From IMG/VR virus record IMGVR_UViG_3300032605_000021: 57,631 bases of DNA; one strand, 5' to 3'. Shown piece by piece: positions 1 through 57,631 of the stretch; position 1 is the first letter of the stretch, and each line of letters begins with the position of its first letter. Made by a program: the position numbers and the translations under genes. The stretch is from a virus. Below the pieces are notes generated by a model that worked only from the letters and a program-made list of their open reading frames with translations, was not told the DNA's origin and made no database searches.

Positions 1-127
1 GCAGTTTGAGCCCCTTGCTGCTGTCCTGCCACTCCTTCACTCCGCTCGCTCCCAGTGCCTTCTTTGCGCTCGGGGTGTATAGCCATCTCCTCTGGCTTTC
101 TGACTTCGCTGGCATCTTCTTTTTCTC
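1..127. repeat. Terminal direct repeat, copy 1 (identical to 57505-57631); circular-assembly overlap or terminal redundancy
   Basis: Read base by base: 1-127 (gcagtttgagcccc...catcttctttttctc) recurs exactly at 57505-57631. Confidence 0.95.
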
Positions 128-337
128 CTTGTCGATGGTCTGCAATTGAATCGATGTTGTTCCGACTGCCGTGATACTCATGGGATATTTCCTCTTTTTC
201 TCCATCGGTTGAGGCGCGGCGCACGATAGGTAGCCCAGTCGCTTCATCGAACGCCGTTACCTTTCCAGCGGGATGAACTGATCCGTGAGGCCTGAATCCT
301 GCACTTAGATCGATATCGTCTTCGATTGCAATTGCCA

Positions 338-2617
338 CTATTCCACCACCTTATAGCCCAACGCGCGGGCATGTTTCGATGCTGCCGCTAAATCACGTTT
401 TGGATTAGCCGCCCGCCATGCCGATTTGCTCCATTCATGGGTTGCTGGAGATGGCAGCGGTTTCGGGGTTGGCAATTGACCCGCTGGGATTCTTTCCGGC
501 AATCCCGCCGGCCCAACCTTGAATCCTGCTGGGGCTGGTGGCGTCGGCACCGGGTTGGACGCCAGCGGCTGCACCCTCATTCGGCTTGTGGCCTCATTCA
601 AGGGCGGTGCGGTCGGGGGTGATGGTAGTGGCGCTCCCTGCGCCCCTGGACTGGCCTGCGCGGGCAACTGGAGCACGGCATCCGGTTCGGGCGTGATGAC
701 CGCTGGGGTGACCGGCGCTGGCGATCCTGGGCGCGCTGCGCCTTCCGGCGTGACGTTGAAGCCGGGAGGCGCCCCCGGTGGCGCTGCGGGTGGCTGTGGC
801 TGTCCTGCTGGCCCAACCTCGGCATTGCCCGGTACGTCTGCGGGGAGTTGCAACTGTGGGTTGGCTAGTTGTCGCCGAGCGGCGCTGAATTGCGGCGGCG
901 GTTCAGGCGGCGGGGTGCGGTCGGGCAACTTTGAGAAAAATCGCTGCAATCCCTCTTGCACCTGGCCGAGTGGCGTTACGCCGAGTCCCTTCTCGGCAAT
1001 GATTCTCGCTGTTCCCGAGATTGGGCCAGCGCCCATCGTTCTTGCGCCCGTCAGCGCGTCCGCGATAGTCGCCTTGACACCCTTCGGCTCCTGAATCAGC
1101 GCCTCTTTGGACGCCAATTGCGGGGCAGCATTGCCGAGCGCCTCCTGAGCCTTCATGATGCTTGACTCTGTGCGCTTGGCTGCGCTGAAATCCTGCCCGC
1201 TGGCCTTTTCTAGTTGGTCGTAATACTCACCACGGAGTTTCGATAGCGCGTCCGACATGGCCGAGTCGACGGTCCCACTCCGGCCGGCGGCAATTGCGTT
1301 CTTGCGGAACTGTGGCGCTAGTTCGCGGTTGAGGTACATCCGGAGTTCGTTGGCCCCGCCCAACGTATCAACCTTACCTAGCCGATCCTTCAGGTCGGTG
1401 ATGGCTGCCGCATCTTCCGGCGAGAATCCCTCAAGCGATTCAGGGAATGTCACTGCGGCCTGGACTGGACGGGGATCGAACGGAGCATTGGCGACGGGCT
1501 GGAGTGCAGCTTGGTGCTGATCGTCAATAATCCCCTTGGCTTTGTCGAGCAGGTTTTGAGTCGCCGCAAGCGCATCTTCCGGCGCTCCCGAGCGAATCGC
1601 CTTGACTATCTCTGGATTATCGGCGGCAACCTGCCGGAGTGGACTGCCAATGTCCTGGGCGACCTGCTTTGGGAAGTAGTCTTTCCCCATGCCGGTTCCG
1701 CGCGCCAGAACGCCGCTAAGTGACTTGTGCTGCCCCTGGGTGTAGTTCTCGCCCTCGACTGGGCGGTTGCGCCGGAACTGAGTCAGCGCCTCGTCTGCGG
1801 TATCCTGGGCGACAGCACGGACGGCATCAGGGAGCGCCTTGACACCCTCAATCACTTTCGGCGCCAACTTTCCAGACGCCATGGTTGCGGCCAGAGGAAG
1901 CAGCGCGGCGATAGCGCCTCCAATGTCGCCCGCCGCTACGTGTTCTCCGATCTGCTGTCCAGCATCGGCGGCCATAGGTCCGAGACCTGGAATAGTCGCT
2001 GCTAGTCCATGACCGAGAGCTAACTCGCGGTGCTCAACCGCTTGCGGTGAGGGATTCATTGAATACCAGGGAGTTGCAGCATCAGCTTGTTTGAATTCGC
2101 TTACCGCTTGAGAGCCCTGATCTATGGCGCCCCGTGCAATTCCCTCAAGACCCCTTTCGACAATCGCTCCTCCAGGCACTACGGCATTTGCTGCCGATTC
2201 TTGCGGATTAGTCGCGTCGGGATTGATCGACTGCGCAATACCTTTGCCAAGGTTTGTAAATCCTCGCCGCGCTGTTTCCGAGAACCCTCTCGCCGGACGT
2301 GTGGGGTCTTGCGTGAAATCTTGCTGATACGCTTCTTCTGGTTTCAGCCCACGCTGTGGGATGGGATTCGTGTCGAACTGGTAGCCGAGTTCCTTAGCCT
2401 TCGGGACGGCGCTGTATGGAATCGGTAACTTATGCCCGTTGTCGTTCCACATCGGATAAACGCCTTCGCCAGGCTTGCCTGTCAGATCGGGAGGCGCGGC
2501 GGGTTGGTTACCAAGCGGAACCTCGGTGAGCCCATCCGGAACGCCTTGCACCCCAGACGATATTGGGACTTCGGTCAGTCCTTCCGGCACTCCCTCAATT
2601 GCTGGACTGGTAGGCAT
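338..2617 (-). CDS. Large low-complexity virion-module protein (internal-virion/ejection-protein-like), Pro-rich C-terminal third
   Basis: 759-aa ORF. Its ATG shares one base with the TAA of the upstream 662-aa gene (TAATG at 2615-2619). Long P/A-rich tail. It sits after the tail genes, as podovirus internal virion proteins do. No catalytic motif recognised. Confidence 0.45.
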   Translation of the reverse strand: MPTSPAIEGVPEGLTEVPISSGVQGVPDGLTEVPLGNQPAAPPDLTGKPGEGVYPMWNDNGHKLPIPYSAVPKAKELGYQFDTNPIPQRGLKPEEAYQQDFTQDPTRPARGFSETARRGFTNLGKGIAQSINPDATNPQESAANAVVPGGAIVERGLEGIARGAIDQGSQAVSEFKQADAATPWYSMNPSPQAVEHRELALGHGLAATIPGLGPMAADAGQQIGEHVAAGDIGGAIAALLPLAATMASGKLAPKVIEGVKALPDAVRAVAQDTADEALTQFRRNRPVEGENYTQGQHKSLSGVLARGTGMGKDYFPKQVAQDIGSPLRQVAADNPEIVKAIRSGAPEDALAATQNLLDKAKGIIDDQHQAALQPVANAPFDPRPVQAAVTFPESLEGFSPEDAAAITDLKDRLGKVDTLGGANELRMYLNRELAPQFRKNAIAAGRSGTVDSAMSDALSKLRGEYYDQLEKASGQDFSAAKRTESSIMKAQEALGNAAPQLASKEALIQEPKGVKATIADALTGARTMGAGPISGTARIIAEKGLGVTPLGQVQEGLQRFFSKLPDRTPPPEPPPQFSAARRQLANPQLQLPADVPGNAEVGPAGQPQPPAAPPGAPPGFNVTPEGAARPGSPAPVTPAVITPEPDAVLQLPAQASPGAQGAPLPSPPTAPPLNEATSRMRVQPLASNPVPTPPAPAGFKVGPAGLPERIPAGQLPTPKPLPSPATHEWSKSAWRAANPKRDLAAASKHARALGYKVVE

Positions 2618-11273: not shown

Positions 11274-12212
11274 CTATTCCCTCAACTTAATGCGCCGGTC
11301 CTGCTCAGCCTTGGCTTTCTTCCACGCCTCACCGGTCAGTGTGTTCATTCGGACATTCTCGAATTCGATTTCACCGCTCATGAATGCGAGCAGCGGATCG
11401 ACCACGTAAGAGCACTTGCACATGCCTGTTTTCGACACGTACTGCGCGTTGCATCGCGGGCAGCAATCCTCGGCCTTGAACTGGACTTCGCGCCAGGATG
11501 GGGCTTTCTGAATCTGCTTCTGCTGCAACATGAAGTCAGCCACGGTGTGCTGGTACTTCTGAATGTTCTTGCGCTTCTGCGGGTCGTCGGCATCGTGTCC
11601 CGCCTCAATCAGCACCGCATGGCAATGGTTGTAAAGTTGCTCCCTTGCCTGGGCGATGCAGTCTTTCAGTGGACGGTCGATGAAGCGTAAATAGCGGCGT
11701 CCCTTTTTGAAGACGTATTCCGGAACGCGAACAACGGTGTCCGGCTTCACGCCGTCCATGTCGCCCTCGAAGACCACAACGCCGCCCGACTTCACGAGTT
11801 TGTCCTCGTCGGTCTCGCCAATGTACCAGTGCTTGAATTCCATCAACTGTTCGACCGGGAGCAGAATCTTGACGTCGTAGCGAGCCCGGAGGCTCTTGTC
11901 CGACATCTCCTGATTGCCGCGGTAGATGGGAAAGCTGCGGGTTCCAATGACGGTGAGAACGCCAAACGGCTTGTCACTGGGCTTTGCGGGAACCGTGTAG
12001 TCCCAGAGGCCAGTTTCGACCTTGAGCGGGAACGGCGAAAGGTTGATGATCGTTGCCGGCTTGATTTCGCCGCGGAGTTCCAGTTCGGTGAGTTTCTGTT
12101 CGCGGATTGCAAGCCGCTCCTGGGCTGCATGACCGAGGCTTGCGGTGTCGGGACGGCCGCCGGATGAAAGCATTGAGTCGGCGCCGATGATTGGGGCTGG
12201 GATAGTTGCCAT
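11274..12212 (-). CDS. Hypothetical structural-module protein with C-terminal Cys cluster
   Basis: 312-aa ORF containing CCPRCNAQYVSKTGMCKC. Confidence 0.5.
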   Translation of the reverse strand: MATIPAPIIGADSMLSSGGRPDTASLGHAAQERLAIREQKLTELELRGEIKPATIINLSPFPLKVETGLWDYTVPAKPSDKPFGVLTVIGTRSFPIYRGNQEMSDKSLRARYDVKILLPVEQLMEFKHWYIGETDEDKLVKSGGVVVFEGDMDGVKPDTVVRVPEYVFKKGRRYLRFIDRPLKDCIAQAREQLYNHCHAVLIEAGHDADDPQKRKNIQKYQHTVADFMLQQKQIQKAPSWREVQFKAEDCCPRCNAQYVSKTGMCKCSYVVDPLLAFMSGEIEFENVRMNTLTGEAWKKAKAEQDRRIKLRE

Positions 12213-12258
12213 GGTGATACGCTCCTTCTGTTGCGCTCCGAGAACTTGTCCCGCGAGG

Positions 12259-12954
12259 TTAGAGGTGACTCATCAAGCCTTGCTTGTTGACGAGCCGGTT
12301 GCGGAAGCCCGAGAGTGCCGGATTTCCCTTGATGAATTCCAGATGCGTCTCGCGCATGTAGGTGACTTCGCGCAGGAAAGCGTCATACTGGGCCGCTTCC
12401 TTTGCGTCAGCCTCCTCCATGTCCTTCTGCATCGCGCGGGCAATTTCCTTCTCGTCAACAATGCCATGACAGTGCGATGAGTTTTCCCATTGCGCGATGG
12501 CCTGGTGAATGTCCTCGAGCAGCGGTATCTGCGGCCATGGACCACCGCCGGATAGCATGAAGTAGCCGCCGCGCTCGGGATATGGGCCCATCATCGGCGT
12601 CACGTTGTCCTGAGAGAGAGCCGACTCCCACTGCTGCCTGGACCCATAAGCCGATGGCGGAAACCACCGCTCAAGAATCCAGCCGGTGCAGGGATACTTG
12701 GGAACCCAGAACATGCCGACTCGAATAGCGTCCGGCGCGATCTGGCGGGTCTGGTAGCGAACGTCCTTGCCGACCGTCTCAAAGTGCACCTGCTCGGTGT
12801 CCTCTGCGAATTCCGTCCACATGCCGGCGCGCTGGACGAGATGGTTTTCAGCAAGGATGATGCGCCAATTCGGCTGATTGAATTCATTCTTGCCACCCCA
12901 TGCGAGTAGTTTGGCGGTTACTTCATGGGGCGTGTCGCGGAGAGGATCGAGCAT
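12259..12954 (-). CDS. Hypothetical protein
   Basis: 231-aa ORF with a 1-nt overlap with the upstream ORF. Confidence 0.5.
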   Translation of the reverse strand: MLDPLRDTPHEVTAKLLAWGGKNEFNQPNWRIILAENHLVQRAGMWTEFAEDTEQVHFETVGKDVRYQTRQIAPDAIRVGMFWVPKYPCTGWILERWFPPSAYGSRQQWESALSQDNVTPMMGPYPERGGYFMLSGGGPWPQIPLLEDIHQAIAQWENSSHCHGIVDEKEIARAMQKDMEEADAKEAAQYDAFLREVTYMRETHLEFIKGNPALSGFRNRLVNKQGLMSHL

Positions 12955-34229: not shown

Positions 34230-35048
34230 ATGGACATTAAGAATCTGTACGATGTAGTCATTTTCACGTCTGCCGCGCTGACCATCAAGGACGCGGTAAT
34301 TGATGCAATTGCCAAACGTGCCAACCTGCGCGATGCCAACCTGCGCGGTGCCGACCTGCGCGGTGCCAACCTGAGCGGTGCCGACCTGCGCGAGGCCAAC
34401 CTGAGCGGTGCCTACCTGATCGGTGCCAACCTGCGCGATGCCGACCTGAGCGGTGCCAACCTGCGCGATGCCAACCTGCGCGGTGCCGACCTGCGCGGTG
34501 CCAACCTGAGCGGTGCCGACCTGCGCGATGCCAACCTGCGCGGTGCCGACCTGCGCGGTGCCAACCTGCGCGATGCCGACCTGAGCGGTGCCTACCTGAT
34601 CGGTGCCAACCTGCGCGATGCCAACCTGCGCGGTGCCAACCTGCGCGATGCCAACCTGCGCGGTGCCGACCTGCGCGGTGCCAACCTGAGCGGTGCCGAC
34701 CTGCGCGAGGCCAACCTGAGCGGTGCCTACCTGATCGGTGCCAACCTGAGCGGTGCCAACCTGCGCGATGCCGACCTGATCGGTAAAAAAATTGAGGCAT
34801 TGCACGTCTTTACTGGACTCTATCGCTATACCGTGTGGGTTGTTTTGTTTCAGGATGGCTCACGTTGGGTGCGTATGGGATGCCTCTGGAATTCGCTTGA
34901 CGATTGGGGAAAAATTGGTATTCGCAACAGTAACCTGAAAGAATTTCCAGACGACGGATCAGACGAAAGCGAGGAGCGCGTCTCGGCGTTTCAGTTTGCC
35001 AAAGCGGCGGCGCTGCGATTGAAGGCGGACGGAAAGGATGCCAAATGA
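34230..35048 (+). CDS. Pentapeptide-repeat protein (31 consecutive A-[NDY]-L-[RSI]-[GDE] units) with a ~90-aa non-repeat C-terminal domain
   Basis: Translation ANLRDANLRGADLRGANLSG... matches the A(D/N)LXX pentapeptide-repeat consensus. AGGAGAAAGTA precedes the ATG. Confidence 0.85.
   Translation: MDIKNLYDVVIFTSAALTIKDAVIDAIAKRANLRDANLRGADLRGANLSGADLREANLSGAYLIGANLRDADLSGANLRDANLRGADLRGANLSGADLRDANLRGADLRGANLRDADLSGAYLIGANLRDANLRGANLRDANLRGADLRGANLSGADLREANLSGAYLIGANLSGANLRDADLIGKKIEALHVFTGLYRYTVWVVLFQDGSRWVRMGCLWNSLDDWGKIGIRNSNLKEFPDDGSDESEERVSAFQFAKAAALRLKADGKDAK
34320..34784 (+). repeat. Tandem 15-nt repeat x31 (coding, in frame)
   Basis: Unit gcc-(a/g/t)ac-ctg-(cgc/agc/atc)-(ggt/gat/gag). 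Codon choice is nearly invariant, and units 2-7 recur exactly as units 23-28. Confidence 0.9.
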
Positions 35049-48636: not shown

Positions 48637-50241
48637 ATGAGCAGGAAAGTCTTATCAGGACCGGAAATCCGCGCGGCACTCTTGCGCGGCGTCAACACGC
48701 TGGCCAACACTGTTACGGCAACCCTCGGACCAAAGGGCCGTTGCATCATCCTCGAACGTAATCCCATGTGGCCGCCAGTCGTTACAAAGGACGGCGTGAC
48801 TGTGAGCAAGGAAGTCCGCGACCTAGCCGACCCCTACGAGAACGCCGGCGCGCAGCTCATCCGTGAGGCAGCCAGCAAGACGAGCGACCAGGCGGGAGAC
48901 GGCACCACCACGGCTACCCTGCTGGCCCAGCGCATCTACCAGAAGGGTCTGGAGTGCCTTGACGCAGGAGCCAACCCTGTCGCCCTCAAGCGCGGCATCG
49001 ACAAAGCCGTAGCTGTCGTGGTCGAGCACATCAAGACTATCGCGCAGCCGGTAGAGGACAACGAGACCATCGCCCGGGTGGGCACCATCTCGTCAAATGG
49101 CGACCGCTCCATAGGCGACCTGATAGCCGACGCCATGCACCGCGTAGGCCGGGACGGGGTTATCACCATATCCGACTCGAACGATGCCGATACCACGCTC
49201 ACCGTGTCCGAGGGAATGCAGATCGACCGCGGCTGGTTCCCGCTGCATCCATTCGTGACCAATCCTGAGCGCCTGGAGACCGTGCTGCACGATGCCTACA
49301 TCCTGCTCACTGAGCGCAAGATGTTCACCATGACCGACGAGCTGTCGAACGTGCTGGCGGAGATTGGCAAGAGCGAGAAAACCGTTCTCTTGATCGTCGG
49401 TGACTACGACCAGCCGTTTATCGTGACGCTCATCCACAACAACCAACTTGGCGTGCTGCGGTCTGTGGTCATCAAGGCGCCGGCATTCGGCGACGACCGG
49501 CGGGCAGCGCTTGAGGATCTGGCCGTCGTGACCGGCGGGTACGCCTTCACCGAGAACTGCGGGCGGGAGTTGGCCAGCATCACGGTTGACGACCTGGGCC
49601 GGGCAAGTCAGATCACGGTCGAGCAGAACAGCACCACCATCGTCGGCGGGTACGGCGACAAGCACGCCAAGGATGTGCGCATGACCATGCTGCGGTCGCT
49701 GATCGAGGCGACTGACAATGACTACCAGCGTGAGTTGCTGCGCAAGCGACTGGCGCGCCTCGCGTCCGGTGTGGCTGTTATCAAGGTTGGAGCCGTCACT
49801 GAGGCGGAGCGGAACGAGCGGAAGGACCGCGTTGACGATGCGGTGTGCGCGACTCGGGCAGCCGTGATGGAGGGAATCGTACCTGGCGGGGGTATGGCGC
49901 TGATCCTGTCGATAGATGCGGTGAGCGTTCTGATGGCTGAGCACAGGGCCACCGATGACGAGGCCGATGGGATGGCGATTATCATGGACGTCCTGCGCGA
50001 GCCCCTACTCCAGATTTGTTCCAATGCGGGCGAGGATGGGACCGAGATACTCAATACCATCGTTCGCGGCGGGCCGGGGATTGGCTACAACGCGGCGACG
50101 GGGGTATTCGAGGATCTGATCCAGGCGGGCGTGATCGATCCTTGCCGGGTAGTTCGGTGCGCTCTCCAGAATGCGGCAAGCGTGGCAGCGCTGATGCTCA
50201 CAACCGAAAGTATGGTTTGCACAATTCCTGACAAAAAGTAG
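48637..50241 (+). CDS. groL: GroEL/Cpn60 chaperonin
   Basis: [23 protein letters not shown]...[11 protein letters not shown]...[12 protein letters not shown]...[13 protein letters not shown]...GIVPGGG...VIDPCRV is collinear with GroEL. It lacks the GGM tail. Confidence 0.9.
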
Positions 50242-51227: not shown

Positions 51228-52468
51228 AAGCGACCGTCTTGGTAGGCGACGTGCTGACACGGCTGGCGCAGTTAGCTGATAACAGTGTCCAGTGCGTGGT
51301 GACGAGTCCACCATACTGGGGCCTTCGCGATTATGGCGTGGACGGCCAGCTCGGCATGGAGTCCAGCCCATACGAGTACATCGCCAAGCTGGTCGGAATC
51401 TTCCATGAAGTTCGCCGCGTTCTGTGTGGGGATGGAACTTTGTGGTGCAACATGGGCGACTGCTACGCGAGCGGTGACAAGGGCGGATACGCGCGAAACC
51501 GTGTCACGGCTTCAGACTCGATGCAAGCATCGAACTTAGGAGATAACTTCATTGGAGCGCCTAACAGGCAATGGGGCGGCCTTCCACCTAAGAACCTTAT
51601 CGGGATGCCTTGGCGTTTAGCTTTTGCACTCCAAGCTGACGGTTGGTATCTGCGCCAGGACATCGTTTGGGCCAAGCCGAACCCGATGCCGGAGAGCGTC
51701 ACTGACCGATGCACCAAGAGCCATGAGTACCTGTTTCTGCTGACCAAGAGCGCCCGGTACTACTACGATCAGAATGCCATTCTCGAAAACTGCAGTCCTG
51801 CCACGCACGACCGTCTTTCACAGAACGTTCAAGCGCAAATCGGCTCGGAACGCGCCCATGCGGGGGGGAAAACTAACGGGAACATGAAAGCCGTTGCGCG
51901 CCATCTCCCCGGCAATAAAACTCACAAAGGAACCACAGCCTACGAGAACGGCGACAAGCGAATGCGGACCAAGGCAGGACTCGTGGACTATGCCGTGCGG
52001 GTTCGCAAGCTGGCCGAGGCGGGCAGCGGGACAAAGAACAACGATAGTTTTGATGCGGCCATGTCGATCATGCCAGAGAAGCGCAACAAGCGATCTGTCT
52101 GGACCATCACGACCCAGCCCTATTCCGAAGCCCACTTTGCAACATTCCCCGAGGCCCTTGTCGAACCCTGCATTCTCGCCGGAAGTAAAGAGGGAGATAT
52201 GGTACTTGACCCGTTCTGCGGTTCTGGCACGACAGGGGCCGTGGCGCTCAGGTATCAGAGAGAGTTTGTGGGCATCGAACTGAACCCGGCATACGCTGAA
52301 CTGAGTCGCAAGCGCATCGGAGCAGAAGCGCCAATGTTCAACGATGTATCTGTGCTCGCCCCAGACTCGGCCTACCCATGGTCACCGGCTGGGCCAACTT
52401 CGCCGACGCCTGCTCCATCTTCCACCGTGTCACCGCAATCGAGCGCTGATCGACGCCAGCCGCAATGA
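51224..52468 (+). CDS. DNA methyltransferase, N6_N4_Mtase family (beta order; SPPY motif IV suggests N4-cytosine)
   Basis: VVTSPPYWGLRDY (motif IV) is N-terminal and VLDPFCGSGTTG (motif I) is C-terminal. GTG start. The last ~43 codons overlap terL antisense. Confidence 0.8.
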   Translation: MKATVLVGDVLTRLAQLADNSVQCVVTSPPYWGLRDYGVDGQLGMESSPYEYIAKLVGIFHEVRRVLCGDGTLWCNMGDCYASGDKGGYARNRVTASDSMQASNLGDNFIGAPNRQWGGLPPKNLIGMPWRLAFALQADGWYLRQDIVWAKPNPMPESVTDRCTKSHEYLFLLTKSARYYYDQNAILENCSPATHDRLSQNVQAQIGSERAHAGGKTNGNMKAVARHLPGNKTHKGTTAYENGDKRMRTKAGLVDYAVRVRKLAEAGSGTKNNDSFDAAMSIMPEKRNKRSVWTITTQPYSEAHFATFPEALVEPCILAGSKEGDMVLDPFCGSGTTGAVALRYQREFVGIELNPAYAELSRKRIGAEAPMFNDVSVLAPDSAYPWSPAGPTSPTPAPSSTVSPQSSADRRQPQ

Positions 52469-53885
52469 GTTGCTGGATCTTCTCCTCGGTGGCTACTTGG
52501 TCCGGCTTCCTGTCGCCAGTGAGGAACTGGTTCAGTCCATACAAAGTCTCATCGAGTACGTCGTCTAACTCGTCACCGGGAACCTTCAAAATAGCGCCCG
52601 GCCTGTCCGGGTCTGTCTTCCGACTGGTCAAACTCTCGTATGTCTTGGGACAAAGGTCGGTGACGATGAATTCTCCCCGACTCAACTTGCCGCTGAGTAG
52701 TTGCGCATTGCCTACGCTATCCTTTGCGGCCTTGGTCAGCGTAACTCCGTTGTTGATCAGAACATCGTTGATAAGGTCGAGGTTACTCTTGCCTGTCCCT
52801 GTGTGCGCGTCCATTGCCGGATCCGCATACCCTGAGACAATCCGGCACTGTTGGCCGCCAGGCCCTACCCGCTGAATGAACTTGCGGGCGATATGGTGCG
52901 CGTACTCCTCCGACTTCATCTTGCGCTCAACGTCCTCGGCAATCTTATAGATGCGCGTGTTCTCGTGCAGGAAGTATAGGCCTGTCGCCGCCGCTGATCC
53001 AGAGTAGCCGTAATCCATCGAAATGAAGTGGGTCATCCACCACTGCTCACCGCACTCGGAGTACGGCAGGATGTAACTCTCGTTGAGGAACGGGAAGAAG
53101 GCGCCCTCTGTGGCACACCAGCACCCAAACAGTAACTTCTTCTGAATATCAGCGGTCTGCGACATCAGAGCGGCGACTTTCTCCTCGCCGTACAAGGGGT
53201 TATCGGACGCCTTGGCAGGAATGAAGCATGTAGTTTTCATTACTGGCGACTCGTCTTCTTTCCAGCGAGCCCCAGCGTACACAGCTCCAGGAATAACCGA
53301 TCTTTCAGGATGGCAGAGAGGACATGCATTGTTGAGGAATATAGACATCAGCCACGGAGTAGACGGGTTCGCTGTCAATCTGATTCGATTTCTCAACCCA
53401 TACTCGGGAGGAGTTGCCACCCATGGGAATAGAGACCGAACACGCTTTTCTGTTTGAAACTGTGCCTCATCGATGCCTAGCCATGAGATAGGCTTTCCAG
53501 TGTACAGCTCAACGTCTGAGTCTTTAGCCATGTATCCCAGACGCATTTGTCCACCGGCAGGGAAACGCCAGAGGCGACCGCCCTCACTCTTCCGTCCTCC
53601 GAGGGGCTCATAGATTTTCTTCATCTCATCCATGATGTTTGCCATCTCAGTGAACGACTTACGAAGGAGAATACCGCGAAAGTTGGGGTTATCAAATTCT
53701 TGAGCGGAATCTCCTACCAAACTCGATGTTTTTCCTCCGCCTGAACTTCCCCCGAAAAGCGCTAACTGCGCACGGCAGTTGATGAGTGTCATTTGTGGGG
53801 GGCAGTTAGGTGCCCATCCAGACACAGCGTGAACGTCTGCGGGAAGGGGTATGATACCTCTATTTTCAAGAAGGGTTAAGGCCAT
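52338..53885 (-). CDS. terL: Terminase large subunit
   Basis: LFGGSSGGGKTSSLVGD is Walker A and WLGIDEAQ is Walker B. The C-terminal half is nuclease-like. 515 aa. Confidence 0.85.
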   Translation of the reverse strand: MALTLLENRGIIPLPADVHAVSGWAPNCPPQMTLINCRAQLALFGGSSGGGKTSSLVGDSAQEFDNPNFRGILLRKSFTEMANIMDEMKKIYEPLGGRKSEGGRLWRFPAGGQMRLGYMAKDSDVELYTGKPISWLGIDEAQFQTEKRVRSLFPWVATPPEYGLRNRIRLTANPSTPWLMSIFLNNACPLCHPERSVIPGAVYAGARWKEDESPVMKTTCFIPAKASDNPLYGEEKVAALMSQTADIQKKLLFGCWCATEGAFFPFLNESYILPYSECGEQWWMTHFISMDYGYSGSAAATGLYFLHENTRIYKIAEDVERKMKSEEYAHHIARKFIQRVGPGGQQCRIVSGYADPAMDAHTGTGKSNLDLINDVLINNGVTLTKAAKDSVGNAQLLSGKLSRGEFIVTDLCPKTYESLTSRKTDPDRPGAILKVPGDELDDVLDETLYGLNQFLTGDRKPDQVATEEKIQQLIAAGVDQRSIAVTRWKMEQASAKLAQPVTMGRPSLGRAQIHR

Positions 53886-54444
53886 AGTCCTCTTTTGGAA
53901 AATTCAATCTTGCAAATTGGCCGCGCAGTTCAATTGCTTTCCTGTCGCGGGCTCGCGCTGCGGACTCTTTTGTCTTGAAGCATCCAATGTAAGTGTGCTT
54001 GTTCAAGTGCGATATGACAGCGACAAAACAGTCATTCTGTCTGTGGGCATAAACGCCAATGAATCCGCTCGTGTTCTTCCGCGTGGCGCGCGCGTTTTGC
54101 TTGTTCTCTAAAACAGTCGAGATACGCAGATTAGAGCGTCGATTGTCTAAGGTGTGGGTGATCTCTTCGTGATCTCCCTGTCTTGGGTCGCCGCGTTTCA
54201 ATCCGAGAATCTCGCGGTGCATGTAAATCTGGTGACGCCCACCTATCTCTTTTCGAGACGACGAGCGGACAGCGTAAAAACTCTGGCTGTTCTCGCACCA
54301 GGTCGCGTACCACTTGTAAAGAGACAGCCATTCGTAATCAGCGGCGTCAACGATGGTCGCCTGCCCCTTTGTGAGTTGAATTGTGCGATACTCGGGAGTG
54401 GGCTGGGAAGCCAGTTCAAGCTGGTCCATAGAAGCGCCCTCCAC
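53866..54444 (-). CDS. HNH + AP2-domain homing endonuclease inserted between terS and terL
   Basis: MHREILGLKRGDPRQGDHEE...LDNRRSNLRISTVLENKQN is the HNH_3 motif. SGFIGVYAHRQNDCFVAVISHLNKHTYIGCFKTKESAARA is AP2. Overlaps the terL start by 20 nt. Confidence 0.75.
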   Translation of the reverse strand: MEGASMDQLELASQPTPEYRTIQLTKGQATIVDAADYEWLSLYKWYATWCENSQSFYAVRSSSRKEIGGRHQIYMHREILGLKRGDPRQGDHEEITHTLDNRRSNLRISTVLENKQNARATRKNTSGFIGVYAHRQNDCFVAVISHLNKHTYIGCFKTKESAARARDRKAIELRGQFARLNFPKEDYGLNPS

Positions 54445-54473: not shown

Positions 54474-55064
54474 TCAAAAGTTGGCCCAGGGATCGTCTTC
54501 GACTTGCGCCTCGATCGTTGGCGCGTTTTGAACAGGGGCTTGTGGAACCTGTGGAGAATAGGTCTGTCCGCTTCGCTGTGTGACCACCTGCCGCGTCTCG
54601 GTGATCGAGTGGGTGATGATGGTCTGCTCCGCCGGCCGGTAGATGCGCGGCGCCTCTTCTTTGGTGGGACCGCTCGACGCGTCGGGTACGAAGTTGTTAT
54701 CGAGGAGCAGGCCTACCCGCTTGTAGCCCATCTCGATTGCGTTGACCTTTGGGGTGGCCAGGCTGGGGGTCGCCTCAAGCGTCTTGCGCGGAATCGTGAT
54801 GACCTGCTTCAAGTTGGCGTCGAGCATCTCGACATTGATAAGCCGCTTCTTGACCAGGACCGCAGTCACAGCCTTCTCGACGGGCTCCATGCGGCGGGTG
54901 ATCTCCTCGAATACCGCCTTGCGCCGGTAGAGGCCCATGCCTTCTCTGGACGTAAAGCCCGCCTCAAGTGCTGCTTTGCCTACATCCCGGCAAGCGCAAT
55001 AGGCGTCCACGAACTTGAGCAGTTGCGGCTGGAGCGGAATGGGGATGCTGGTATCGACTTCCAT
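54474..55064 (-). CDS. terS: Terminase small subunit (putative)
   Basis: LQPQLLKFVDAYCACRDVGKAALEAGFTSREG resembles the HTH start of small terminases (..Fv.eY....n...Aa..AGys). Positioned upstream of terL. Confidence 0.55.
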   Translation of the reverse strand: MEVDTSIPIPLQPQLLKFVDAYCACRDVGKAALEAGFTSREGMGLYRRKAVFEEITRRMEPVEKAVTAVLVKKRLINVEMLDANLKQVITIPRKTLEATPSLATPKVNAIEMGYKRVGLLLDNNFVPDASSGPTKEEAPRIYRPAEQTIITHSITETRQVVTQRSGQTYSPQVPQAPVQNAPTIEAQVEDDPWANF

Positions 55065-55333: not shown

Positions 55334-55711
55334 TCAGTCATAGAAGATCATCCCCGGCAAGGTGTCGAGCCATTGCTTCAATTGGGAGCGTTCGTCTTCT
55401 GGCAGTGCGGCCCAGCCTTCGGGGGTGATTAGCTCCAGGTTTCCCCAAACCGCCCCAGGTCCAGAGATATATCCCCAATGCTCTTTGGCTTTTGGATCGA
55501 TCCTTCCGACCCGTCGCCACCAGCCGATGAAATCGGATAGAATTTCCCTTCCGTTACCCCAGAAAGTGATGGCGCATCGACCAGCCACGGTGCAATTGAC
55601 GGTGTTGCACCGGAAATCCTTCAAGTAAGCCGGCATAGGCAGATAGCGCCAATGGCACAGACGCCAGAGATATTCGTCACTTCGGGTACACTTCATCGTT
55701 CTGTGTGCCAT
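55334..55711 (-). CDS. Hypothetical Trp/Cys-rich protein
   Basis: 125-aa ORF. Its ATG shares the A of the upstream micro-ORF TGA. Confidence 0.5.
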   Translation of the reverse strand: MAHRTMKCTRSDEYLWRLCHWRYLPMPAYLKDFRCNTVNCTVAGRCAITFWGNGREILSDFIGWWRRVGRIDPKAKEHWGYISGPGAVWGNLELITPEGWAALPEDERSQLKQWLDTLPGMIFYD

Positions 55712-55836
55712 CAGTGCCGCTCTCGATTGAAAATGTCGGAGATGGACACGCCCACGGCTGGGATGAGTGCTTTCAGGAGTAGCGCAACGATCACGATGAA
55801 GATCAGAGCAGCGAGGTTCAGAGCGAGCGTAATCAT
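55711..55836 (-). CDS. 41-aa single-TM micro-protein
   Basis: ATGA overlap with the stop of the 585-aa gene and a TGATG overlap with the next gene. Product MITLALNLAALIFIVIVALLLKALIPAVGVSISDIFNRERH. Confidence 0.45.
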   Translation of the reverse strand: MITLALNLAALIFIVIVALLLKALIPAVGVSISDIFNRERH

Positions 55837-57590
55837 GCGACTATTTTACCCGTGTTTCGCTCGACATGGACTGCGCGATCATCGTAAAACTTTTCCAGAA
55901 GATCATCCTTCACGTCCTGCATGGGTAGACTTCTCCCGAACACTTTATAAGTCCAGGCTTCAAGTGCCGCGCGGTTCAATCCTTTCGGATCATCCGATAG
56001 TTTCGCTGTGAAGAGCCGCACATCTTTTCCGTCGGCGATATCCTTTTTGGCTCGTTCCACCAGCGCCGAAACGGGATTCCCTATTTTGAATGACGGTTGG
56101 CCCTTGGTCCAATGAGCAAGAGAACCATCGACATCATATCCAATCCAGTGCAATGCCGGGTTTGGCTTTGGGGAGTGCGGGATAGGTTGCAATTCACTTC
56201 CCTTGAATGTACGCAGACCGCCGGGAGAGAGAACGCTCCAACGGCCTCCATTTGAGAAGTTGGGATTACCACCGTGGACGATGCCGAAGCTATCCTTTCC
56301 GATGATCACGGTGATGCCTTTGGATAACTTGACAGGCTCAACTTTCGATGACTTCTCGCTATCGTTCCGCTCGTTAAACTTTTCCATTGCAGCATCGTTT
56401 ATAGCTTTGGCCTGCTTCTCTTTCTTTTCGGCGGTCGCATCCTTGCCCTCTAAGTCGGCCTCGCGCGCTGCATCGTATACGTCATGCTGATGCGCATTGG
56501 CTTCCAAGACCTCCTTGGGCACAATGTGAATCTCGGCTGACAACTGCGGCGTCACCCGAGCCTGTAGCTTGTGGACGCGATAGTTCGTCGGTGGTGATCC
56601 CCTCTCAAATTCGTCCTCGTCTCGGATCACTTTGAAGTGATTCTTAACTGCGGCAACAGTGCGCTCGTGGGCATCGCGGGAGTCCACGCCGATCCTGCCG
56701 GCCAGAATATCGGGGATGGTGTGGACCGGCTGGCCCTCTTCCTTGATCTTCTCATCAATCCGCTCCGGAGATTTCTCAGGCCGAACGGCATCGAATTTTG
56801 CTCCGGCAATGCCGCGGGTAACCGCCTTGAGTCCGTCCTCGAATTGCTGAGCGTGCGCTTTGGCTTGGCTGACAAGCTGCGCGCGGTCCTTGGATTTGTG
56901 GAGTATATCGCGACCGGTGGAGGGATCTTTGGAGGGAAAGTCTCGTTGCTCTAATTGAACCTCATCAGCATTGCCGTCACGGTCGGTGATTGAGATGGAG
57001 TTGACGGTGAAAGTCTTGCCGTCAGCCTCGGTCATGCCGGTGTAGCGTTTCGCCTCTTCTGGCTTTACGTAGGCAACCGTGGCGTGTGGCTTGTATTCAG
57101 GGAATGACCGCTCGGCAAATGTGCCGTGCTTCTCGATCTCCTTTTCCATCCGGCGCAGGTCGGCAGACTCAACCGGCACAATGATCGGCGCCGCCCCATC
57201 GCTGTGCTCGCTAGGCGGGAATGCCTGAGTCTTGCCGAGGGACGCCTCAAAGGGCGCTTGCTTCTCCAGATACGCGCGAACGCCTGCGGTGTCGCCGTCG
57301 ATGCCGTACCGCACGGTGATGTGCGCGTCCTCAATCAAACCATCGCCCATCAGATCGGCGGGGTCGATAGCCTTGCGGAGTTTGGCGAGCGCTTTGCCTG
57401 CATCGCTGTCGGGAGGAATGTCGGCCTGCGTGTAGCCGTGCTTGTACTTCGGTTTTACTTCTTCCGCATGATCCTTTTGCCCGCCCGGCTTGGCGCTTTC
57501 TCCGGCAGTTTGAGCCCCTTGCTGCTGTCCTGCCACTCCTTCACTCCGCTCGCTCCCAGTGCCTTCTTTGCGCTCGGGGTGTATAGCCAT
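55833..57590 (-). CDS. Three-module polyvalent protein: 2H phosphoesterase (LigT/CPDase-like) + RelA/SpoT-like nucleotidyltransferase + HAD (Pnkp-like) phosphatase
   Basis: H-x-T motifs AHITVRYG (H90) and PHATVAYV (H169). EKSPERIDEKI...IPDILAGRIGV...NYRVHKL...SAEIHIVPKE...HQHDVY matches the RelA_SpoT pattern. WIGYDVDGSLAHW is a DxDG(T/S)L HAD motif I, followed by LFT and K...DD. The frame stays open upstream across the contig junction to the GTG at 338. Confidence 0.6.
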   Translation of the reverse strand: MAIHPERKEGTGSERSEGVAGQQQGAQTAGESAKPGGQKDHAEEVKPKYKHGYTQADIPPDSDAGKALAKLRKAIDPADLMGDGLIEDAHITVRYGIDGDTAGVRAYLEKQAPFEASLGKTQAFPPSEHSDGAAPIIVPVESADLRRMEKEIEKHGTFAERSFPEYKPHATVAYVKPEEAKRYTGMTEADGKTFTVNSISITDRDGNADEVQLEQRDFPSKDPSTGRDILHKSKDRAQLVSQAKAHAQQFEDGLKAVTRGIAGAKFDAVRPEKSPERIDEKIKEEGQPVHTIPDILAGRIGVDSRDAHERTVAAVKNHFKVIRDEDEFERGSPPTNYRVHKLQARVTPQLSAEIHIVPKEVLEANAHQHDVYDAAREADLEGKDATAEKKEKQAKAINDAAMEKFNERNDSEKSSKVEPVKLSKGITVIIGKDSFGIVHGGNPNFSNGGRWSVLSPGGLRTFKGSELQPIPHSPKPNPALHWIGYDVDGSLAHWTKGQPSFKIGNPVSALVERAKKDIADGKDVRLFTAKLSDDPKGLNRAALEAWTYKVFGRSLPMQDVKDDLLEKFYDDRAVHVERNTGKIVA

Positions 57591-57619
57591 CTCCTCTGGC
57601 TTTCTGACTTCGCTGGCAT
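57455..57619 (-). CDS. 54-aa KSxxQRR...KLPEK small protein (DUF3008-like, from memory) overlapping the polyvalent gene in another frame
   Basis: MPAKSESQRRWLYTPSAKKALGASGVKEWQDSSKGLKLPEKAPSRAGKRIMRKK, with AAGGAG 9 nt upstream of the ATG. An alternative ATG at window position 181 gives 76 aa across the junction. Confidence 0.4.
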   Translation of the reverse strand: MPAKSESQRRWLYTPSAKKALGASGVKEWQDSSKGLKLPEKAPSRAGKRIMRKK

Positions 57620-57631
57620 CTTCTTTTTCTC
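57505..57631. repeat. Terminal direct repeat, copy 2 (identical to 1-127)
   Basis: Exact 127-bp identity with the left end. Confidence 0.95.

Follow-up and report, generated by a model that had tools for sequence, protein, structure and literature searches.

Extent of the polyvalent gene

The window analysed here is the whole 57,631-nucleotide stretch of the IMG/VR virus record IMGVR_UViG_3300032605_000021. On its minus strand lies a gene, termed the polyvalent gene below, whose single product carries an N-terminal motif and a disordered linker, followed by 2H phosphoesterase, RelA/SpoT-type (RSH), small beta and Pnkp-like HAD modules (Table 1). The likeliest reading of this arrangement, which we hold with moderate confidence, is a phage-type polyvalent protein that would be delivered with the virion and would act on nucleotide signals.

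The first 127 and the last 127 bases of the window are an identical direct repeat, and the assembly is therefore circular, its true length being 57,504 bp. By default the k-mers of SPAdes go up to 127, so that a repeat of 127 bp points to an assembler overlap. Genes span the junction of the 57,504-bp circle.

The preliminary description of this DNA had placed the gene at 55833-57590. An open reading frame (ORF) of 585 amino acids (aa) is indeed present there on the minus strand, and its translation agrees with the one quoted earlier. However, the ATG at 57590 misses 84 N-terminal residues: the frame is open 5' of this codon, through the junction and up to the GTG at 338-336, and circular joining followed by translation gives a product of 669 aa. 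The G of this GTG is also part of the TAG stop codon (340-338) of the ORF at 338..2617. A 97% identical protein from another contig (P0001) is exactly 669 aa long, with the N-terminus VAIAIEDDIDLSAGF, and all close homologues (665–704 aa) contain the 84 extra residues, their N-termini (MATEVEDDIDLSAGF...) lying at the position equivalent to GTG 338. We rejected ATG 57590 as the start because the frame is open upstream, because the homologues include the upstream residues and because the AGGAG in front of it abuts the ATG without a spacer. The GTG at 338 is the true start of the polyvalent gene, and the coupling to the upstream gene that had been suspected through this codon is borne out by the overlap with the upstream stop. 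The motif residues reported earlier are all exact in the 585-aa frame; H90/T92, H169/T171, D294, E353 and D486/D488 of that numbering correspond to H174/T176, H253/T255, D378, E437 and D570/D572 of the 669-aa protein.

Table 1. Positions of the polyvalent gene, its parts and its neighbours in the window (residues in 669-aa numbering; AF2, AlphaFold2; pLDDT, predicted local distance difference test)
Feature	Coordinates	Strand	Residues	Remarks
Terminal direct repeat	1..127	none		same as 57505..57631; marks circular assembly
Polyvalent gene, 5' part	128..338	-		GTG start 338-336, overlapping the upstream TAG
Polyvalent gene, 3' part	55833..57631	-	about 71-669	with stop codon; joins 128..338 on the circular genome
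N-terminal motif	204..338	-	1-45	DIDLSAGF..HPAG.VTAFDE.TGLPIVRR; conserved; predicted disordered
Nested gene, 5' part	128..181	-		ATG 181-179
Nested gene, 3' part	57455..57631	-		+1 frame; conserved nested in relatives; codon-position test
2H domain	56949..57452	-	131-298	catalytic H174/T176 and H253/T255; Pfam, fold, motif conservation
RSH domain with conserved C-terminal helix	56349..56930	-	305-498	D378, E437; homologue profile and fold matches
Small all-beta domain	56175..56330	-	505-556	AF2 strands E511-554, pLDDT about 81-92; in 19 homologues
Capless minimal HAD	55836..56165	-	560-669	motif I D570-V-D572-G-S, II T-A-K, III K, IV DD
41-aa hydrophobic protein, putative transmembrane	55711..55836	-		ATGA overlap with the polyvalent TGA; conserved in L001 and L005
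Upstream 759-aa proline-rich protein	338..2617	-		no family match; variable large protein in relatives' slot
Small terminase (terS)	54474..55064	-		PHROG match
HNH/AP2 endonuclease	53866..54444	-		PHROG match; between terS and terL
Large terminase (terL)	52338..53885	-		PHROG match

Enzyme domains

The 2H domain matches Pfam PF13563 at 38.4 bits, against a cutoff of 27. Its two HxT motifs, HITVRYG and HATVAYV, retain the histidine and the threonine in 100% of 44 diverged homologues. The full-length protein was modelled by AlphaFold2 from an alignment of collinear homologues and domain fragments. In this model the 2H domain has a pLDDT above 90, and a Foldseek search of the PDB returns Usb1, Acb1, plant CPDase and LigT at E-values of 1e-5 to 1e-4 (4e-5 for Acb1, 7T26). 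The earlier assignment to the 2H phosphoesterases is upheld by this profile match, by the invariance of both motifs and by the fold.

The RSH domain scores 21.6–24.2 bits with PF04607, under the cutoff of 27. The same family matches 17 of the 18 homologous RSH domains at E below 0.01 (best 3.8e-8), and several homologues have precomputed PF04607 hits. Residues R56, K59, K67, D80 (within TIPDILAGR), E139 (within AEIHIVP), H155 and Y158 are invariant in the alignment of these 18 sequences, and in a profile alignment DILAGR stands against DLLAVR of Thermus thermophilus Rel. Like the 2H domain, the RSH domain is modelled with a pLDDT above 90; its fold matches Tas1, RelP, RelQ and Rel at E-values of 5e-6 to 1e-4, with a target TM-score of up to 0.70, and the top PDB match of the full-length model is Tas1 (6ox6, E 5e-6). 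The proposed RelA/SpoT fold thus finds its support in the match to small alarmone synthetases and Rel and in the invariance of both catalytic residues, D294 and E353 of the shorter numbering. An attempt to infer the acceptor specificity from the signature residues that separate Apk2 from (p)ppGpp synthetases (PMC12226406) failed, the residues being mixed.

The last two modules, beta and HAD, have a pLDDT of about 81–95 in the full-length model, and the HAD modelled alone one of 89. In 21 HAD sequences D14, D16, K89, D98 and D99 are invariant, and the T/S of F[TS]A[RK] is retained. The curated profiles give weak scores: HAD_PNKP PF25109 matches 3 of the 21 members (best E 0.004), TIGR01662 reaches E 0.04–0.07 (13–14 bits against a cutoff of 44.6), and neither yields a match above its cutoff. 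In the PDB, the fold is closest to that of the T4 Pnkp phosphatase, in structures 1ltq, 2ia5 and 5uj0 (Foldseek E 6e-3, probability 1.0), followed by the phage sugar-bisphosphate phosphatase AfhF, BT_0820 and GmhB (E up to 2e-2, probability about 1). In addition, hhalign of the HAD family profile with the T4 Pnkp phosphatase domain (the sequence used is 100% identical to 5UJ0 and 1LTQ) gives E 5e-4 and a probability of 31% across motifs I–II. A search of PDB sequences with the HAD-domain profile gave only irrelevant weak matches and did not retrieve T4 Pnkp, and phmmer with the 585-aa protein against PDB sequences gave nothing. From the fold matches and hhalign, the Pnkp-like HAD call therefore holds at the level of fold and motif, with modest scores, and not by curated thresholds. 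T4 Pnkp is the closest PDB fold and D486/D488 are conserved, as had been proposed; in all, the model and Foldseek recover all three enzyme folds, with conserved catalytic residues.

We note that the mini-HAD of roughly 110 aa is a very large family that lacks a Pfam model. Solo mini-HAD genes of phages (e.g., L006 3896..4600 and L007 3986..4351) are annotated as ‘hypothetical’ or ‘HAD hydrolase’, and some, probably wrongly, as ‘phosphoheptose isomerase’.

Recurrence and shuffling of the modules

Among 60 homologues the modules occur in the orders 2H-RSH-b-HAD, RSH-2H-b-HAD, RSH-b-HAD and HAD-2H, and as 2H alone (b, beta domain). RSH and HAD are found together in about 37 of these 60 close homologues, mostly with 2H as well. 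In an exhaustive search, the HAD profile matched 4,363 clusters with E <= 1e-3. Of the new representatives, the best 139 include 57 solo proteins of 220 aa or less and 32 giants above 1,000 aa, and RSH, 2H and HAD come together in 16 of the 139, including giants of 2–4 thousand residues. In these 16 clusters the three usually form a block in the order RSH, 2H, HAD, and some giants have hundreds of residues between 2H and HAD. For the 82 HAD proteins with several domains, the odds ratio of 2H and RSH occurring together is 7.3 (Fisher p 2e-4, uncorrected for phylogeny). The preliminary description knew of no characterised protein with the three-domain combination; uncharacterised though it is, the combination is a recurrent cassette of metagenomic phage proteins and not unusual.

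The same modules are also joined to other partners. The HAD module is found in proteins of 1.7–4 thousand residues alongside 2H, GGDEF, RelA_SpoT and ART-PolyVal domains, and the best matches in BFVD are large uncultured-phage proteins named DdrB-like, RelA/SpoT and ART-PolyVal-like. In P0058, a close relative of the 2H domain (E 2e-37) is joined to a Phage_portal domain (64.7 bits, cutoff 39.1). The 2H subfamily is fused alternatively to GGDEF or to RSH, both of which are synthetases of nucleotide signals.

When 50,697 genomes of cultured phages were searched with tblastn, no relative covered the full length; the matches comprised solo HAD genes and a single hit to 2H. The solo HAD homologues belong to Rhizobium, Ralstonia, Burkholderia and Vibrio phages. 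The sole cultured-phage match to the 2H domain is from Tunturiibacter phage Tunturi_5, and a homologue of the small nested protein described below (P0208) comes from a Terracidiphilus metagenome-assembled genome; these two matches therefore give a hint of an Acidobacteriota host.

Polyvalent proteins were defined by Iyer, Burroughs, Anand, de Souza and Aravind (2017, J Bacteriol; PMC5512222). According to that work, 2H, RelA/SpoT and DdrB-ParB modules occur in phage-type polyvalent proteins only, whose genes lie near late or virion genes; the 2H domains are fused to MuF or portal and may degrade defence-related nucleotides or act as RNases, and the RelA/SpoT domains may trigger an alarmone response. 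The protein described here has at least two disparate domains in one phage polypeptide, the phage context being given by the terminase genes and the circular 57.5-kb genome. It also draws on a network of domains that other such proteins have in common and that reaches into virion proteins (portal with 2H in P0058, GGDEF with 2H, and ART-PolyVal with 2H and HAD). The framing as a polyvalent effector is accordingly supported by the domain network and by the fusions to portal, GGDEF and ART-PolyVal. The HAD module is absent from the main text of PMC5512222, in which ‘phosphatase’, ‘haloacid’ and ‘polynucleotide kinase’ do not occur, and we therefore have a known class with an undescribed module.

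The N-terminal motif and a gene nested in the linker

Residues 1–128 of the 669 are modelled with a pLDDT of about 30. They begin with the conserved motif of Table 1, which is present in about 26 of the 60 homologues, whose cargo differs; in 20 of these about 26 the core FDE..GLPI lies at about residue 30. The motif is a candidate address or docking peptide. The idea that the neighbouring proteins have the same address peptide was dropped after a regular-expression search of the ORFs of the window.

The linker coincides with a second gene. An ORF of 76 aa in the +1 frame starts at ATG 181, crosses the junction and stops at 57455, encoding a basic protein (MSITAVGTTSIQLQTIDKEKKKMPAKSESQRRWLY...RAGKRIMRKK). 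It covers main-frame residues of about 53–129, which is the disordered linker, and the ATG at 57590 discussed above falls within this dual-coding stretch. A Shine-Dalgarno-like AAGGAG precedes an internal methionine of the nested ORF (MPAKS). The ORF is kept at the same nested site in four related loci (L001, L003, L004 and L005) with 55–85% identity, and gene callers have annotated its homologues as separate proteins of 44–78 aa in 15 clusters. Two further loci carry a stand-alone homologue between the polyvalent gene and terS (L002, about 12052..12309, and L008, 6001..6237). In Pfam, DUF3008 is matched only by the stand-alone L002 homologue, weakly and below the cutoff (E 0.0033).

Substitutions were counted by main-frame codon position among five loci, which are related, so that the counts are non-independent. 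At positions 1/2/3 they number 75/52/232 in the N-terminal motif, 286/149/129 in the nested stretch, 432/295/932 in 2H, 190/155/896 in RSH and 470/325/983 in beta plus HAD. The periodicity tracks the small ORF only in the nested stretch, where the third position of the small ORF is main-frame position 1, and the pattern is the same in every pair of the five loci. The main frame has no stop in at least five diverged genomes, and the 2H domain lacks its own start codon, from which it follows that both frames are in use. For the same two reasons we need not invoke a frameshift or reinitiation that links the nested ORF to the main frame, a possibility we had considered. In the simplest reading of these sequences the small gene is the older one, and the linker arose by overprinting, as its read-through in the second frame. 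The nested gene would be a clean example of overprinting, and it suggests how new cargo could be spliced onto a virion-targeting peptide.

Genomic neighbourhood

Downstream of the polyvalent gene come first the gene of the hydrophobic 41-aa protein, then two small ORFs and then terS. The order of large low-complexity proteins, polyvalent gene, terS, (HNH) and terL is kept in L001, L002 and L008, and in related contigs a methylase and a chaperonin gene come after terL, on the opposite strand. The L002 protein in the slot just upstream of the polyvalent gene carries ddrB-ParB. TerL is only about 26% identical to that of any cultured phage, which therefore places the virus in a deep uncultured lineage.

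The preliminary description put the gene between three large internal-virion-like proteins and the terminase genes. The position is correct, but the term ‘internal-virion-like’ comes from position and composition: Pfam and PHROGs find no structural family in the flanking and upstream large ORFs, and for the 1027-aa protein they give weak ‘virion structural’ matches. As the large neighbours have no family match, calling them internal virion proteins is therefore a positional guess.

Several further features of the region are recorded here in their own right. In three upstream-slot proteins (L002 6727..9936, L008 2235..4379 and L005 55..570) the C-terminus has a short beta motif, G.TV...GR.G.V.G.NP.TGK, which resembles, by eye, the beta domain of the polyvalent protein (GIVHGGNPNF); the motif may be an adaptor module common to cargo proteins. 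The HNH/AP2 endonuclease gene overlaps the start of terL. In relatives TerL carries an intein (L002 13466..15991, Hint_2/Intein_splicing; L001 5833..8493, with an insertion of roughly 375 aa), and the terminase genes seem to lie in a hotspot of homing elements. A GroEL-type chaperonin gene is called at 48637..50241 (+) from the syntenic genes L001 11045..12667 and L002 19563..22055, which carry Pfam Cpn60_TCP1, L002 also with Cpn10. A pentapeptide-repeat protein (34230..35048 (+), Pfam E 2.4e-62), which may be a DNA mimic, is encoded near YqaJ/RecT recombination genes, an SMC/RecN-like ATPase and DnaB.

Proposed role and alternatives

We infer that the polyvalent protein is packaged in the virion. 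It would be made late and carried in the capsid, possibly by means of its N-terminal motif, and would enter the next host together with the DNA. Small nucleotides or RNA 3' ends would be the targets of its modules during the first minutes. Immune second messengers and other cyclic or 2',3'-cyclic/2'-5'-linked (oligo)nucleotides would be cleaved by the 2H domain, and the HAD would take off the resulting 3' (or 2') phosphates. The RSH domain, using ATP, would 3'-pyrophosphorylate a purine nucleotide, and the (p)ppGpp- or (p)ppApp-type product would reprogram the host or shut it down. For the link to virions we rely on the portal fusion of P0058, the large proteins in which HAD accompanies ART-PolyVal, the BFVD matches, the ddrB-ParB protein beside the gene in L002 and the gene order ahead of the terminase genes that L001, L002 and L008 retain; for the nucleotide theme, on the GGDEF and RSH fusions of the 2H subfamily, the Acb1 fold match and the association of 2H with RSH.

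Several observations weigh against such a role. The substrates cannot be read from the sequence, and the signature residues of the RSH domain, as given in PMC12226406, are a mixture of (p)ppGpp and (p)ppApp types. With the Acb1 family PF23474 the protein scores 19.1 bits and its best relative (P0044) 26.6, against a cutoff of 27, and the 2H fold matches Usb1, LigT and CPDase no worse than Acb1. A (p)ppApp-forming or ATP-depleting activity would harm the phage too. As regards delivery, the other ORFs of the window gave no convincing match to the N-terminal motif in the regular-expression search, and the large neighbours, as described above, match no structural family. Finally, solo HADs of cultured phages lie in neighbourhoods of nucleotide and DNA metabolism, e.g., beside ThyX and DNA polymerase in Vibrio phage PVA7, and the HAD may therefore belong to ordinary metabolism.

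A bolder form of the proposal, which we consider unlikely, is that RSH, 2H and HAD are a conserved virion-delivered pathway and not independent passengers, with the cargo in this lineage joined to its address peptide because an intervening gene came to be translated in a second frame. The RSH domain would then 3'-pyrophosphorylate ATP or another nucleotide, the 2H domain would convert or cleave the 3'-modified or cyclic species, and the HAD would strip the remaining 3' phosphate. The outcome could be that cyclic-oligonucleotide immune signals are erased while their synthesis is blocked, or else a catalytic cycle that burns ATP. The recurrence of the RSH, 2H and HAD block in small and giant phage proteins speaks for this form.

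One of the two hypotheses offered earlier was the healing of RNA 3' ends. The 2H domain would open the 2',3'-cyclic phosphates left by host anticodon nucleases and the HAD would remove the 3' or 2' phosphate, so that phage or host tRNAs are restored or, if the protein counters repair, religation of the host's RtcB type is blocked. A 2H and a Pnkp-type HAD do represent the two classical chemistries of 3'-end healing, the HAD has the T4 Pnkp phosphatase as its closest PDB fold, with the hhalign match given above, and it is capless; in the scheme of HAD cap classes, a capless enzyme has an open active site that suits macromolecular ends. However, the other required parts are lacking. Polyvalent-type 2H domains are never associated with RNA ligases (PMC5512222). 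The protein has no Walker-A (P-loop) kinase motif, and among the ORFs scanned, i.e., the flanking genes and ten large plus-strand ORFs, which are part of those in the window, we saw neither an RNA ligase nor a kinase family, in line with the earlier remark that no RNA ligase is evident. The most constant partner of the HAD is the RSH domain, and we know of no RNA-repair pathway that uses an RSH step. RNA healing is thus improbable, and an action on nucleotide signals would fit the module network better, with its alternative GGDEF and RSH fusions and its Acb1-like fold, than RNA repair.

Just as improbable, in our estimation, is that the protein stays in the cytoplasm, unpackaged, as a late-expressed fusion of nucleotide-metabolism enzymes that has ended up last in the late operon by chance, and serves, for example, nucleotide dephosphorylation and the adjustment of alarmone pools during replication and packaging. 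The nucleotide and replication genes around the solo HAD homologues of cultured phages agree with this account, as do the neighbours without a structural-protein family and the disordered N-terminus. It does not explain why the 2H subfamily includes a fusion with a portal protein, why HAD and RSH modules sit within giant ART-PolyVal and DdrB-type proteins, why the N-terminal motif is conserved while the cargo changes, or why the coupling of the gene to its neighbours is so tight, with stop and start codons overlapping by 1 nt on the upstream side and as ATGA on the downstream side.

Very improbable is a toxin that serves competition or superinfection exclusion, comparable to MuF-Apk2 or to the type VI secretion effector Tas1, in which the RSH domain would make (p)ppApp and deplete ATP in a rival or co-infected cell, the remaining modules being accessory: Tas1 is the top fold match and MuF-fused RelA/SpoT toxins of prophages produce (p)ppApp (PMC12226406), but the Tas1 match is no better than those to RelP, RelQ or Rel, Pfam finds no MuF domain in the protein, and no immunity-type gene (IapK or an Aph1-like HD hydrolase) was recognised downstream.

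The virion-delivered, nucleotide-directed protein proposed above would be of interest beyond this genome. The prediction for polyvalent proteins is that a phage deploys them in the cell before any others, and to our knowledge almost none of them has been tested. With its 669 aa, the protein offers a widespread three-enzyme cassette in compact form, with catalytic residues that lend themselves to mutation. If it degrades immune nucleotides or makes alarmones on entry, it would represent a new, virion-delivered route of anti-defence.

Comparison with known systems

Each enzyme module has well-known counterparts. Acb1, LigT, Usb1 and CPDase have in common with the 2H domain the two invariant HxT motifs and the 2H fold. 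Compared with Acb1, the domain is closer to the generic PF13563 family and sits within a multidomain protein, and its family carries, unlike Acb1 and other 2H enzymes, a loop of its own (SEHSDGAAP) between the HxT motifs. The RSH domain has the nucleotidyltransferase fold of RelQ/RelP, Tas1, MuF-Apk2 and the toxSAS enzymes FaRel and CapRel, and also conserves their basic motif for ATP binding, the aspartate of D-x-x-x-G-R, the glutamate of E-x-[HQ]-[IV] and H-x-x-Y; it differs from these small alarmone synthetases and RSH toxins in lying outside a toxin-antitoxin pair, in having no fusion to MuF or a secretion domain and in scoring below the Pfam cutoff. With the T4 Pnkp phosphatase the last module has in common the small HAD fold, DxDG(T/S)LA, the (S/T)-x-(R/K) of motif II and the DD(R) of motif IV, whereas in sequence the two are only marginally similar, and the module comes without a kinase domain or a partner ligase and is about 110 aa long instead of about 140.

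As a whole, the protein compares best with the phage-type polyvalent proteins (PMC5512222), with which it has in common disparate enzyme domains in one phage polypeptide, a place beside late and packaging genes and a mosaic architecture, its relatives being fused to portal, GGDEF, ART-PolyVal and DdrB-ParB-type proteins. It is short for this company and has no processing peptidase, and its RSH-2H-HAD cassette, its FDE..GLPI motif and the nested gene are undescribed in PMC5512222. Judged by its sequence, it is an uncharacterised member of the known polyvalent class, to which it adds the HAD module and a recurrent cassette.

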